Below are positions 7,509 through 16,221 of a stretch of DNA of 16,901 nt, piece after piece. Source of the stretch: a bacterium. Its GTDB lineage: Bacteria; Electryoneota; Electryoneia; Electryoneales; Electryoneaceae. A program made the position numbers and the translations under genes. The first letter of the stretch is position 1, and every line of letters starts with the position of its first letter. Where the stretch lies: assembly GCA_043801585.1 (NCBI GenBank), contig JAZDLX010000172.1:1-16901 (forward strand), given 5' to 3'. The notes under the pieces were generated by a model. The model made no database searches and was not told where the DNA came from. It saw only the letters and a program-made list of their open reading frames with translations.

Positions 7509-7554
7509 TAATCTATTGTTTATTAGTACGCTATTGTATGGCATACCCCTTGCT
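7509..7554 (+). promoter_or_regulatory. Sigma54 (-24/-12) promoter with an upstream IHF-like site
   Basis: TGGCATACCCCTTGCT at 7539-7554 has exact GG-N10-GC spacing. TAATCTATTGTTT at 7509-7521 is one mismatch from the IHF consensus TAANNNNTTGATW. The site lies 61 nt before the permease ATG. Confidence 0.75.
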
Positions 7555-7615: not shown

Positions 7616-10018
7616 ATGCTGAAAAACTACCTGTTGACCGCTTTGCGCAACCTGATGCGCAACCGCGTTTATTCACTGATTAACATCGTCGGTTTTGCAT
7701 TGGGACTATCCGTCTTTCTGATTATATCGCTCGTCGTCATTGATGATCTCTCCTTTGACCGATTCCATGTTGACTCCAGGAATATCTACCGCTTTCTGAC
7801 TCAGAACGTGTCGACCCGCAATGTCAACGCCATCACCAGCGGCGCACTGACGAAAGAAGTGATGGAAGCGGTTCCGGACGTCATCGCCACCACGCGTGTA
7901 TTTTCTTTTGGACAGGTCAATCTGACCTTTTTCGGAGCTGGTGAAAATGAACAAGGCATTCAAAGGTTCATTCTGGGTGCCGACTCGAATTTCTTCAAGG
8001 TTTTCCCGTCATTCAAAATCATCGAGGGAGATCCCGATAACCAACTGAAAACCCCGAACACCGCGGTGGTGACACGCGAGGTTGCACGGGCTCTGTTTGG
8101 TGACGAGAACCCCATCGGGAAAAGCGTTTCCGGTCAGAACAACCAATTCCAGGTTACGATCACTGGAATCGTTTCCGATTGTCCCCGTTATTCCCACCTC
8201 CATTACGACATCATCGCCCCGGCACTCGTCAATCCGCAGAACGCGGTCTGGTGGGAATCCTGGGATAACATTACGGGACAGGGCTACCTCCGTACTCACC
8301 AGGGAGTCAGTCAGAACAGTCTGGAGAAACAGATTCAGGATGTTGCTGAACTGAACGGAATGAATGAACAGTATCTACCCCTGTTGCAACCCCTGCTCGA
8401 CGTTCACCTGGGCAGTGGAGATATTCGATTTGACGGGTTCAATTGGGGAAAGAGCGACAAAACCCAGGTTGTCATCCTGAGTGTGATCGCGTTACTGACA
8501 TTGATCATCGCTTCGATCAACTTCATCAACCTCTCGAGCGCACGGGCGATCAAGCGAGCTCGTGAAGTTGGGATGCGCAAGGTTGTCGGCGCGAACCGGA
8601 TACAACTGATGGGCCAGTACCTTGGGGAATCGGTGCTGCTGACGTTGATCGCCACAGTCATCGCTGGGATCACTGTTCAACTTTCGCTTCCTGCCCTGAC
8701 CAATTTCCTCGGCAAGCAGGTGAATTTCACGTTGACCAACAGCCCGATACTGATTCTCGGACTGTTCCTGACAGCGCTTTTCGTCGGATTGCTCTCCGGC
8801 ATCTATCCGGCTATTATCCTCGCTGGATTCAAACCGGTTTCCGTTCTCAAGGGCGCCTTCCGCTCGAGCAAACAGGGAATTGCACTGAGGCAGGGATTGG
8901 TCGTGTTCCAGTTCGCCCTGTCCATTGCACTGATCGCCAGCGTGATCATTGTGCTCCAGCAGCTTCATTACGTGGTGACGATGGATCGTGGCTACGATAC
9001 CGAACAGATTGCAGTAACGTTCATGTTCAATCAGCAGGTCGCGCCCCACCGTGCAACGTTCATGGATGAGCTGCGTAAAATTCCTACAATCGAAGCTGTT
9101 GGATCGACCATCCACATGCCGGCATTTAATCAACCTGGCAAATACGAAGCGAGGGCTGAAGACTCAATTTCGGACGAAATGAACCTCTCTGTTAACTTCA
9201 TGTTCGTCGGTCCCGATTTCATTCCCGCTCTCGATCTGAAACTGATCGCTGGACGCAATTTCACCAAGGGTTCATCCGCGGACAGCAATGTCAGCGTGGT
9301 CGCCAATGAAGCGCTGGTTCAGGCTTGCGGATGGGATGATCCGATTGGGCGCCATGTGATCGTTCAGGATGTCAATGGAAACATGGTCCCGAAGACCATT
9401 ATCGGAGTCGTCCGCAATTTCCAGTTGTTCGGCGCCCGCCAGGAGATCGAGCCTCTCGTTCTCGAATACCTTCCCCAGGGAGGGGGATTTGTTCCCTTCC
9501 GCATTCAAGCAGGAACGATCCCCGAAACCATGGAAAAAGTGCGCGAAGTCTGGACGAACATGTTTCCGGATGTTCCTTTCAACAGTGCATTCCTCGACGA
9601 TCAGTTCGAAGCCCAATATCAAGGCGACCGGAACTTCGCCACCAAAGTGGGTGTCTTCTCCGCACTCGCAATCATCATCGCCAGCCTTGGCCTGCTCGGT
9701 CTGACCTCCTATGCCACCGAACAGCGGCGCCGGGAAATTGCGGTGCGGAAAGTCCTCGGAAGCAGCGAGGGGAACATCATGTTTATCCTGATGCGCGATT
9801 TTGTCAAATGGGTCCTTTTTGCGAATATTATCGGATGGCCAATTGCCTTCTTCGCGATGCGTCAGTGGCTTTCCGATTTCGTCTATCGGATCACAATAAC
9901 GCCTCTCCCCTTCATCATCGCGGGACTGGCAGCCCTGGTGATCGCCATGCTGACGATTTCCATTCAGGCCTACAATGCAGCGTTGACAGACCCGGCGACA
10001 GTGCTGCGGACAGAGTAA
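7616..10018 (+). CDS. ABC transporter permease, duplicated MacB-PCD/FtsX architecture (800 aa)
   Basis: MLKNYLLTALRNL start, RAREVGMRKVVGA and RRREIAVRKVLGS motifs, two periplasmic domains, DPATVLRTE end. Confidence 0.95.
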   Translation: MLKNYLLTALRNLMRNRVYSLINIVGFALGLSVFLIISLVVIDDLSFDRFHVDSRNIYRFLTQNVSTRNVNAITSGALTKEVMEAVPDVIATTRVFSFGQVNLTFFGAGENEQGIQRFILGADSNFFKVFPSFKIIEGDPDNQLKTPNTAVVTREVARALFGDENPIGKSVSGQNNQFQVTITGIVSDCPRYSHLHYDIIAPALVNPQNAVWWESWDNITGQGYLRTHQGVSQNSLEKQIQDVAELNGMNEQYLPLLQPLLDVHLGSGDIRFDGFNWGKSDKTQVVILSVIALLTLIIASINFINLSSARAIKRAREVGMRKVVGANRIQLMGQYLGESVLLTLIATVIAGITVQLSLPALTNFLGKQVNFTLTNSPILILGLFLTALFVGLLSGIYPAIILAGFKPVSVLKGAFRSSKQGIALRQGLVVFQFALSIALIASVIIVLQQLHYVVTMDRGYDTEQIAVTFMFNQQVAPHRATFMDELRKIPTIEAVGSTIHMPAFNQPGKYEARAEDSISDEMNLSVNFMFVGPDFIPALDLKLIAGRNFTKGSSADSNVSVVANEALVQACGWDDPIGRHVIVQDVNGNMVPKTIIGVVRNFQLFGARQEIEPLVLEYLPQGGGFVPFRIQAGTIPETMEKVREVWTNMFPDVPFNSAFLDDQFEAQYQGDRNFATKVGVFSALAIIIASLGLLGLTSYATEQRRREIAVRKVLGSSEGNIMFILMRDFVKWVLFANIIGWPIAFFAMRQWLSDFVYRITITPLPFIIAGLAALVIAMLTISIQAYNAALTDPATVLRTE

Positions 10019-13635: not shown

Positions 13636-13712
<77 letters not shown>

Positions 13713-13756: not shown

Positions 13757-13794
13757 GCAAGCCTGCCAGACGGATTCTCCGAAAACGCGTGACA

Positions 13795-13920
13795 GAAAAA
13801 GCGTGACAGTTACTCTTTTTCGACCTGCCCGGAGTGTTTGCTTCGACTCCTGAATCTTCCACATTGATCGAGTCACTGGGCATTTGTAACGGTAAAAAAG
13901 AGTAACTGTCACTCTATTTC
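13795..13920. repeat. Inverted-repeat element with self-palindromic 26-nt arms
   Basis: GAAAAAGCGTGACAGTTACTCTTTTT (13795-13820) matches the reverse complement of 13895-13920 at 24/26. The inner 18 nt are perfect. Spacer is 74 nt. Confidence 0.8.
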
Positions 13921-13938
13921 CGCGCTCCTCCCAGACAC

Positions 13939-14084
13939 AAAAATGAACCGGAAGTGCACCGTGCAAGGAACCCGTCCAGGCAAAGCACTTCCGGCTCAAT
14001 CCGGGAAGGCCGTCATCCGAGGAAACCGTGCAAGCAAGTCTCGGCCTTCACGCGTAGCCCGATCAAAGCAGGCGTTTCAATCAT
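13939..14084 (-). ncRNA. Candidate small RNA (~145 nt) with two hairpins and a repeated loop motif
   Basis: Stem GAAGGCCG/CGGCCTTC (14005-14049) and a 14-bp stem (13944-13998) ending in TTTTT on the minus strand. The loops share an 18-nt motif at 15/18. An ECF-type promoter lies directly upstream. Confidence 0.55.
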
Positions 14085-14090
14085 TTGAAA

Positions 14091-14115
14091 TACGTTTGAG
14101 AGTGGCACAAGTTCC
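14091..14115 (-). promoter_or_regulatory. Putative ECF sigma factor promoter
   Basis: Minus strand GGAAC(TT), 16 nt after GGAAC, then CGTA. This fits the generic ECF AAC/CGT consensus. Confidence 0.55.
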
Positions 14116-14435
14116 AGGTCAAATGAACAAGTTGGGAGGTATGTCACTTCCTCGGACCAAAAAGTACTGATAAATCTTATGACTGTCCACTGCGTTTTGA
14201 AATTGTTGCTCTCATTGGGATAAATTGATAGGTCTATCTAACATTTATCTATCTGTTATATTTAACGATACAGTGAAGGAATCGTGATATGAACGGTATC
14301 TCTCTTTTTACTATGAAATATAATTATTGTACGTTTCCACATCGCCCTTCGAGACGCACCGGATAAAATGGTCTTATCAAAATGCAAAGATCGATCCTTT
14401 ACGCGGCACCATTCCTCTCCCCGCCGGGCATCAGA

Positions 14436-14738
14436 TCATCCGAGATGGTAATGCACCCCTTTCCCGCCTTCGGGATAGAACCAGTTGACATAGTGCGGTG
14501 CGGCGACATGGCAGGTTCCACATTCGACGCAGTTCTCGTGATTGATCGTGCACTCACCCGTCGCCTCATTCAGCTCATAGACCTTCGCGGGACAGATGTA
14601 GAGCACAGCCTTGACCGGGTCCGCCTTGAAGATTTCCTGGTCCACTGAAATGTGAGACTGGTGATCCGGTTTGTAGGTCAGCAGGCCGAGTTTGTCTTCT
14701 ATGGTGACAGGGTTGTTTTTTACCGGCAATTCGCTCAT
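14436..14738 (-). CDS. fixX: Ferredoxin-like protein FixX (100 aa)
   Basis: IEDKL...SHI, ICPAKVYE, NCVECGTC and WFYPEGGKGVHYHLG. The start overlaps the fixC stop (ATGA). Confidence 0.9.
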   Translation of the reverse strand: MSELPVKNNPVTIEDKLGLLTYKPDHQSHISVDQEIFKADPVKAVLYICPAKVYELNEATGECTINHENCVECGTCHVAAPHYVNWFYPEGGKGVHYHLG

Positions 14739-16045
14739 CGCACCGCTCCCAGTATTTTCAACATGTCGGTCACGAACTTGAACATCCCGACATCCTTGCG
14801 AATGCTGCGGAACAGGTTCTTCTCCACCTCCGCCTTGGATGTTTCGTCGATGGTGAAGTATTCCTCCAGCCACTTTGACACGTAGCCGGGGTAATCCCGC
14901 AGCACATGGGGATACCTGTTGAAGAAATCGGGGATCCTGCGGAATTTCTTCATGTCCTTGAGCACGAATTTCGCTTCCAGTTTCGCCCGGTAAGGCGCCA
15001 GAGCTTCGGCGGAACCGATGTCGATCCCCTTCTCTTTCGCCTCGATGATCGTTTCGGCGGCGAGGATACCGCTGCCCATCGCGAGATTCGTTCCCTCATG
15101 GTAAACGCTGCCGTTGACAAGTCCCGCAGTGTCCCCCACCAGCAGCAATCCGGGCATACTCATCTTCGGCAGGTGATTGTACCCGTATTCAGGGATCATG
15201 TGCGCGGCGTACTCAAGCGACTCGCCGCCCTGGATCAGTTTCCGTATCGTCGGAAGGTTCTTGAAATGTTCGAGCAGATCGTTCAGCGTTTCCTTTTGTT
15301 CGATCAGGTCGTGCACGGTGAGTCCGAGGCCGATCGACACCGACTCTCCGTTGGTGTAAACGAACCCCATCCCGAAACGGCCTTTGACCGGCTCCCCGAA
15401 ATACTCAATGGCAACGCCCTCATCCCCTTCGAGCAGGAATCGGTCTTCGATCACGCCTTTGGGCAATCCAATCACCTCTTTGACGTTGGTGACCATGTGG
15501 CGTTTCGGCAGCTCCGGTTTCATCAGGCCCACCTGCCGTGCGAGGAACGCCTGTGCGCCCTCGCCGGAGATGACCACGCGCGCCCGCATTTCCTCGTCGC
15601 CCGGCTTGACCTTGACGCCGACGACACGGCCGTCCTCGACGACGAGTTCGCTGACCATGAATCCGCTGAAGACCTGAGCGCCCACCGCCTCGGCCTGCTC
15701 CGCGAACCAGCGGTCAAACCGTCCACGCAATGCGGTGACGGTGTGATTCCACGGTTTGTCACGCCATCTGCCCACTTTCAGGTCCATCGCCACTTCCCGA
15801 TCACCCGCGAGGAATCCGAAACGGCGGCGTGTCACATGCCGTTCGAAGGGAGCATTTGTATTGGATTCCGGGATCAGTTTCAGGAGTTGATGGGTGAACA
15901 GGATGCCACCGTAGACATTCTTCGACCCGGGATACTCCCCGCGCTCGAGGACAACGACTTCCAGACCCGCCCGTGCGAGGGTGATGGCGGCGCTGATGCC
16001 TGAGGGTCCAGCGCCGACAATCAGAACGTCAAATTGTTCATCCAT
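14735..16045 (-). CDS. fixC: FixC/EtfC FAD-dependent electron-transfer-flavoprotein:quinone oxidoreductase subunit
   Basis: FDVLIVGAGPSG Rossmann motif, ERGEYPGSKNVYGG, RGRFDRWFA, EYAAHMIPEYG, LLVGDTAGLV and EGTNLAMGSG. Translationally coupled to fixX. Confidence 0.93.
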   Translation of the reverse strand: MDEQFDVLIVGAGPSGISAAITLARAGLEVVVLERGEYPGSKNVYGGILFTHQLLKLIPESNTNAPFERHVTRRRFGFLAGDREVAMDLKVGRWRDKPWNHTVTALRGRFDRWFAEQAEAVGAQVFSGFMVSELVVEDGRVVGVKVKPGDEEMRARVVISGEGAQAFLARQVGLMKPELPKRHMVTNVKEVIGLPKGVIEDRFLLEGDEGVAIEYFGEPVKGRFGMGFVYTNGESVSIGLGLTVHDLIEQKETLNDLLEHFKNLPTIRKLIQGGESLEYAAHMIPEYGYNHLPKMSMPGLLLVGDTAGLVNGSVYHEGTNLAMGSGILAAETIIEAKEKGIDIGSAEALAPYRAKLEAKFVLKDMKKFRRIPDFFNRYPHVLRDYPGYVSKWLEEYFTIDETSKAEVEKNLFRSIRKDVGMFKFVTDMLKILGAVR

Positions 16046-16114: not shown

Positions 16115-16221
16115 ACCGGAGTCCCTCGGCCGCGCCGCAGGCAGCCGAAACCCGCCTCTGTGGCGAAAGATGGCATTACTTTTGCTCTCTTGGTGGCAGG
16201 GAAACTTGCAGGAGGTATGTC

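Follow-up and report, generated by a model that had tools for sequence, protein, structure and literature searches.

A predicted single-copy small RNA gene upstream of tRNA-Pro(CGG) and the phylum-wide family of GCACGGUUU-repeat RNAs to which it likely belongs

The window, which is the whole 16,901-nucleotide stretch of DNA analyzed here, carries on its minus strand a predicted small RNA gene that is single-copy, non-coding, and under constraint, and the locus is very probably a real functional RNA gene. The RNA in all likelihood belongs to a family of RNAs built on copies of the short word GCACGGUUU, a family that is uncatalogued, is spread through its phylum, and is defined here. On sequence comparison it appears to be a miniature homologue of the long RNAs of this family, with the present genus having a promoter-swapped variant. 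The RNA, running from about 14084 to a terminator at 13939, may act as a decoy titrating a factor that binds GCACGGUUU, a reading put forward tentatively at slightly below even confidence. The phylum is uncultured, and to our knowledge nothing is known of RNA regulation in it. The family bears several marks of a global regulator, being widespread and enhancer-controlled and repeating a single word of 9 nt as many as dozens of times, and if the decoy reading is right the word provides a direct handle for fishing out a global RNA-binding regulator. The window copy would illustrate how such an RNA can be reduced to three units and exchange its sigma-54 promoter for a different one.

An earlier note made from the letters of the window had described a promoter-like motif, two hairpins, a TTTTT run, and matching loop sequences at this place, all of which are present (Table 1). 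The finding is real, its scope is wider than that reader saw, extending to a phylum-wide family, and the proposed ECF control and anti-Shine-Dalgarno seeds are less certain. The 18-mers displayed in the loops of hairpins 1 and 2 match at 15 of 18 positions with the 10-mer CTTGCACGGT exact in both, and the single G-U among the 14 pairs of hairpin 2 joins 13995 with 13947. Three repeat units lie on the same strand of the small RNA, from which CCGT is absent. A genome search finds the small RNA as a single copy in the 3.28-Mb assembly, which settles the check for a dispersed repeat proposed in the note, as the element is not a REP or MITE. An Rfam scan of the window places only the tRNA above the gathering threshold, the best other hit being sroE at 16.1 bits with E about 1, in agreement with the note, in which no known family was recognized. 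Open reading frames of 44-98 codons overlap the region, and none of them is common to the genome of the window (G000) and that of its sister species in the same genus (G001). Folding z-scores are similar on both strands (-2.23 minus and -2.35 plus) and the energy is unremarkable. Coverage in four public runs (X1, X4, X19, and X20) is of the tRNA only and is uninformative on transcription of the small RNA.

Table 1. Coordinates of the small RNA, its predicted elements, and the neighboring genes in the window
Feature	Positions	Strand	Description and basis
Predicted small RNA, ~145 nt	13939..14084	-	Terminator sets 3' end; core 13937-14073 76% identical to G001
Candidate ECF-type promoter, GGAAC-N16-CGTA	14091..14115	-	GGAAC 14115-14111, then 16 nt, then CGTA 14094-14091, read from sequence; GGAAC-N16-CGTG at aligned place in G001
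Candidate sigma-70-like promoter, TGGACA, 17 nt, TACTTT	14161..14189	-	Overlies conserved 19-nt block TCATAAGATTTATCAGTAC (14182-14164)
5' leader with small predicted hairpin GCCUG-CUUUGAU-CGGGC	14057..14073	-	Alignment with G001 and comparison with long members
Hairpin 1	14005..14049	-	GAAGGCCG (14049-14042) pairs with CGGCCTTC (14012-14005); 29-nt loop
Repeat unit GCACGGUUUCC	14031-14021	-	Single unit inside hairpin 1
Hairpin 2, terminator stem	13944..13998	-	TGAGCCGGAAGTGC (13998-13985) pairs with GCACTTCCGGTTCA (13957-13944); 14 pairs
Repeat units GGACGGGUUCC and GCACGGU	13977-13967 and 13964-13958	-	Both in 27-nt loop of hairpin 2
U-run of intrinsic terminator, TTTTT	13939..13943	-	G001 has UUAUUUUUU at matching place
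tRNA-Pro(CGG), conserved downstream neighbor	13636..13712	-	Own promoter TTGACT-N17-TATATT at 13756-13728
fixX-type ferredoxin gene	14436-14873	-	Pfam Fer4_ETF_QO
fixC	14735-16045	-	Co-oriented with fixX, small RNA, and tRNA-Pro(CGG)

BLAST of 40 relatives matched G001 only, in which synteny is kept with the RNA placed between fixX and tRNA-Pro(CGG). The RNA core is identical at 104 of 137 positions between the two species compared with 48-54% identity in the intergenic flanks, 54% at the third codon positions of fixX, and 83% in the tRNA promoter. No position differs in a 17-mer of the leader (14070-14054). Hairpin 2 differs by one compensatory A-U to G-C change and by two changes to or from G-U, which fit the minus strand only and would give A-C mismatches if the plus strand were read; hairpin 1 of G001 has one A-C mismatch. 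Directly upstream of the core, positions 14074-14180 are only about 54-59% identical, and the GGAAC and CGT elements are found at the same spacing in G001 with the 16 nt between them mostly changed. Among metagenome contigs, the scan recovered nothing but copies identical to G001 and a single chance match, with the result that the short form is known from two distinct sequences only, and hairpin 1 and the promoter therefore rest on one comparison. A scan of a genome collection returned only the record of G001 itself, and a search of the other 14 class genomes with model R1 gave no match apart from one inside a gene, attributable to chance.

The terminator hairpin can be followed into other genera. 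In an alignment of hairpin 2 comprising seven sequences from five genera, 98.8% of the cells are paired and 6 of the 14 pairs are changed on both sides, with the loop word invariant among the aligned terminator hairpins. In 500 shuffles the observed values were never reached, whether for the cells paired, for the pairs or the cells with changes on both sides, or for covariation; the number of additional pair types was unexceptional (182 of 500 shuffles), and slid controls were 35-55% paired. This covariation and the G-U changes between the two species uphold the part of the note that described a non-coding RNA gene ending in a terminator, read from the minus strand and displaying a motif in two large loops. 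A covariance model (R2) built solely from the terminator hairpins of five genomes of other genera has its best match in the window at hairpin 2 (13939-14000; 22.2 bits, E 2e-4), followed by G001 at 19.8 bits, and scores hairpin 1 at 15.7 bits (E 0.015). The match of 22 bits has significance at the scale of the window alone, with E about 0.03 when scaled to the genome, and synteny thus carries part of the homology argument. In a whole-genome run of R2, in which 150 of 1002 candidates were scored, the locus was not listed.

A homologue search upstream of tRNA-Pro(CGG) had been suggested in the note, and family members are found there in several relatives, with a hairpin 2 that covaries. The class, order, and family here form one group of 16 species genomes, and the phylum sample comprises 79 genomes with 63 outside the class. 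The RNA lies directly upstream of tRNA-Pro(CGG) in 9 of the 15 class genomes examined. In addition to G000 and G001, seven genomes (G003, G004, G008, G011, G013, G014, and G015) contain 3-9 copies of (U)GCACGG(U/G)U upstream of the tRNA and on its strand, and in five of them (G004, G011, G013, G014, and G015) the array ends in a terminator hairpin with the loop (G/A/C)ACGGUUUCC, no terminator hairpin with such a loop being found for the G003 and G008 arrays. A pattern search located similar arrays elsewhere in the genomes of G005, G007, and G012 and in a further seven genomes belonging to three different families (G027, G030, G033, G038, G041, G042, and G047). The family is present in 12 of the 16 class genomes and at least 7 of the 63 others of the phylum, both figures being lower bounds because the search pattern is strict. 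Conservation of the loop motif therefore extends far beyond what the earlier note supposed, and the promoter motif that it paired with it is kept in G001.

The units of the family are all on one strand and number from 3 to more than 20 per RNA. Summed over 19 RNA stretches, GCAC occurs about 221 times compared with about 10 for GTGC, and ACGG about 156 times compared with about 6 for CCGT, and a position matrix drawn from 145 ACGG instances gives the unit as GCACGGUUU(a/c)C. The long relatives range from 190 to about 950 nt, the 19 counted stretches being about 190-700 nt and the G038 RNA spanning about 950 nt from its promoter. None of 17 family loci has a match in Rfam, no reading frame is conserved in the long arrays, and a literature search returned no description of such an RNA. 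An open frame of 176 codons at L103 was rejected as a gene, being broken in the relative L101. A second array was sought and not found in G000, where a cluster of GCAC on contig C21 is a coding Ala/Thr/Pro repeat. Among the remaining pattern matches, L102, L106-L111, and L116-L117 show no one-strand cluster of units; L107 and L112, the two inspected as sequence, both read as coding; and L113-L115 have only two units each. The pattern search in G007 was swamped by dozens of tandem repeats of ~17-21 nt (GCAAGCACGGAGG...), which occur on both strands of many contigs (for example L042, L049, and L055) and are unrelated to the RNA family.

Hairpin 1 (GAAGGCCG/CGGCCUUC) corresponds to the closing stem of the family, GAAGGC.../...GCCUUC, which together with a CUUUGA leader is common to L012, L014, L073-75, and L105, genus g11 closing with another stem. 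In G003, G005, G007, G008, G012, and G030 the closing stem encloses 155-474 nt of array and is preceded by the CUUUGA leader, and in the present genus the array enclosed by hairpin 1 has shrunk to one unit. The small RNA thus has the same-strand GCACGG(U/G)U copies, the terminator loop word, and the closing stem following a CUUUGA leader, and is without the sigma-54 promoter and enhancer palindrome that form the remaining feature of the family.

A sigma-54 promoter with at most two mismatches and with GG and GC intact precedes 15 of the 17 arrays outside this genus; one of the remaining two has GT at -12 and the promoter of the other lies beyond the DNA examined. A palindrome RYGCA-N5-TGCRY is placed 70-250 nt upstream of 16 of 16 promoters, compared with a background of 0.156 per 260 nt, and the two elements together have the layout of an enhancer-dependent promoter. 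Neither element is found within 400 nt of the small RNA in G000 or G001, no pair of palindrome and sigma-54 promoter occurs anywhere in the G000 assembly, and a search for a regulon of the palindrome gave nothing in G000. The genes neighboring 16 family loci have nothing in common and no activator gene adjoins them. A palindrome search in five other genomes returned a similar site with a sigma-54 promoter before one gene of G021 (L119, G021:C1, about 376.5 kb), the product of which begins like a type IV prepilin, and with only this one pilin-like gene behind a similar site the activator is not nameable. Sigma-54 promoter-like sites with at most one mismatch are also seen in the window on the plus strand at 7539-7554, ~60 nt upstream of an 800-amino acid FtsX-type permease ORF (7616-10018), and at 16171-16186, upstream of a repeat-rich, secreted-looking ORF near the window end.

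The small RNA would be transcribed as a species of ~145 nt from the region of 14084 to the terminator at 13939, its three displayed units would bind a protein or other partner, and the amount of RNA would set how much of the partner stays free. Such a decoy function fits the many copies of a short and somewhat degenerate word, the strong avoidance of its complement, the variable copy number, and the enhancer control, and the RNA more likely soaks up its partner than masks ribosome-binding sites. The variation in copy number and the degeneracy that the word tolerates are better suited to titration than to seeds. The mechanism taken by itself may hold with a chance a little short of even. Folding of single sequences counts against it, the repeat units being no more unpaired than other G/C positions (0.31 compared with 0.34). 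As to the partner, Hfq is found in none of the 79 phylum genomes (control genomes gave matches), CsrA in 1 of 79, which is not one of the 16 class genomes, and RRM_1 in 53 of the 79 phylum genomes and no class genome (0 of 16), and Hfq, CsrA, and, within the class, an RRM protein were accordingly rejected as candidates. RRM_1 proteins are also absent from both g32 genomes with the longest arrays. In the 5' regions of G000 genes, as delimited by crude gene calls, no enrichment is seen of the word or of its complement, and the rRNA contig contains no full complement of the word.

Several known systems are similar in design. CsrB, RsmY, and RsmZ sequester CsrA/RsmA through a word repeated in hairpin loops and between stems, and in CsrB-type RNAs the copy number varies between species and the loop of the terminator hairpin carries a unit. 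The present family likewise repeats a short word in varying copy number and has a unit in the terminator loop; unlike CsrB/RsmY/RsmZ, its word is without a GGA core (ACGGU), it has no Rfam match to them, and CsrA is nearly missing from the phylum. The sigma-54-dependent small RNAs GlmY, Qrr, and NrsZ resemble the long relatives in their -24/-12 promoter and enhancer site 70-250 nt upstream, whereas they bear no sequence relation to the family, and we know of no array of one repeated word in them. A parallel in layout is seen with CrcZ/CrcY of Pseudomonas, CrcZ being described as driven by sigma-54/CbrB and as sequestering Hfq/Crc, the RNA having a short motif in several copies (PMC5113210). 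The long relatives share with these RNAs the sigma-54 promoter, the upstream activator site, and the short word repeated along an RNA of a few hundred nt, and titration would be predicted by analogy with that account (PMC5113210). In contrast, the family word is GCACGGUUU and not the A-rich AAnAAnAA, the phylum genomes gave no Hfq, no activator gene with cbrB-like adjacency is seen at 16 loci, the window copy has no sigma-54 promoter, and there is no sequence or Rfam match.

The reading given in the earlier note was of an ECF-sigma-dependent envelope-stress small RNA with two loops acting as duplicated anti-Shine-Dalgarno seeds that pair with mRNA ribosome-binding sites, and this is unlikely. 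The GGAAC-N16-CGT motif is present in both species, Shine-Dalgarno sequences are in use in the genome (present at 40% of long ORFs compared with a background of 14%; 16S tail CACCUCCUUUCU), and a C/U tract follows each unit (UUUCCUC/UUCCUU in G000 and UCUCCUU/UUUCCCC in G001). However, the 19 related RNAs conserve GCACGGUUU(a/c)C and not a CCUCC-like tract, the family-wide sequence after ACGG being UUU(a/c)C, the relatives carry up to more than 20 copies, unlike seed regions, which leaves the seed reading unsupported, and the complement of the word shows no enrichment at 5' regions. RybB and MicA are sigma-E-dependent envelope-stress small RNAs that work with Hfq. The window copy resembles them as a short terminator-ended RNA behind a GGAAC-N16-CGT-type promoter, whereas it has no Rfam match to them, the lack of Hfq in the 79 phylum genomes leaves the comparison drawn in the note unsupported, no ECF link is found, and the conserved part is a repeat word common to sigma-54-driven RNAs in place of a 5' seed. 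Dependence on an ECF sigma factor gains no further support from the genome: G000 has six sigma-70-family genes with four of ECF size, none of these four has a GGAAC-N16-CGT-like motif within 300 nt upstream, and GGAAC-N16-CGTA is not enriched (20 occurrences compared with 26.6 expected from base composition). Upstream of one ECF-sized sigma gene, on contig C9 of G000, GGACACATTACTTAATTCA and its complement form a perfect inverted repeat of 19 nt directly 5' of the start codon.

We infer that the small RNA starts at the conserved GGAAC-N16-CGT, which would be an ECF-type promoter or one for another alternative sigma factor; that it is an ECF promoter is doubtful, conservation of the motif in two species being the one point in its favor. 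The 5' end could be set by this motif, by the putative sigma-70-like pair around 14182-14164, or by fixCX read-through, and the account in which the RNA has no promoter of its own at GGAAC, being a processed 3' end of read-through or starting at the sigma-70-like pair, is decidedly improbable. The co-orientation of fixX in both species agrees with it, as does the lack of any listed terminator-like site between fixX and the small RNA, the latter scan seeing only loops of 3-8 nt and thus missing even hairpin 2. Block 14182-14164 is the most conserved upstream block, with one mismatch in G001, and overlaps the possible -35/-10 pair; against this, the sequence from 14074 to 14180 is poorly conserved as a whole, and the pair falls below the thresholds of the promoter scan and is unlisted there. 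CrcZ is described as also arising by processing of cbrB-crcZ read-through (PMC5113210). The same block was considered as a Fur-type palindrome, which it resembles under what we take to be the Fur consensus, and was rejected in that role, being unique in the genome, where only three loose Fur-box matches occur.

It would be more improbable still that the locus is a decaying, non-functional remnant in which the sigma-54 circuit has been lost and hairpin 2 does no more than end fixCX transcription before the tRNA promoter is reached. The missing sigma-54 promoter and enhancer palindrome, at the locus and as a pair in the assembly, would agree with decay, as would the presence of only three units and of an apparent mobile repeat directly downstream. 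Against decay, the core is kept at 76% compared with about 50% in flanks at saturated neutral divergence, the leader 17-mer is invariant, changes in the stem compensate one another, and both species retain the loop word.

For Geobacter the reported RpoN promoter consensus is TTGGCACGGTTTTTGCT, within which the unit GCACGGTTT is found (PMC2725144). This overlap and the overlapping ORFs could point to a DNA-level element (a protein-binding array or dispersed repeat) or to a small protein gene, which is very improbable given that the locus is single-copy with units all on one strand, that the G-U pairs and covariation point to RNA, that the ORFs are common neither to G000 and G001 nor to the long arrays, and that only 28% of units have the first G of the -24 GG. 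The overlap also allows the family to be read as an RNA mimic of sigma-54 promoters feeding back on sigma-54 or its activators, as GCACGGUUU equals the -24-box-to-spacer part of the sigma-54 consensus and the RNAs are themselves sigma-54 transcripts. The mimic would do for sigma-54 what 6S RNA does for sigma-70, and if it were true the promoter-swapped miniature would let another sigma factor damp the sigma-54 regulon; the low frequency of the first G counts against this reading too, and its probability is very small.

The interval between the RNA and the tRNA-Pro promoter differs among the genomes. In G000 it holds an insert of ~150 nt (13770-13936), absent from G001 and located between the small-RNA terminator and the tRNA promoter, with 18-nt inverted repeats at 13895-13912 and 13803-13820 and partial copies on contigs C86, C133, and C137, features that suggest a small mobile repeat. 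Between the array end and the tRNA-Pro promoter, a second conserved element of small size is seen at L021:1698-1773 on the minus strand and at the like place in L012, L014, L018, L022, L025, and L026. It is absent in G000 and G001, has no Rfam match, and is composed of a hairpin ACAGCG...CGCUGU flanked by CCCC runs with a terminator of its own.
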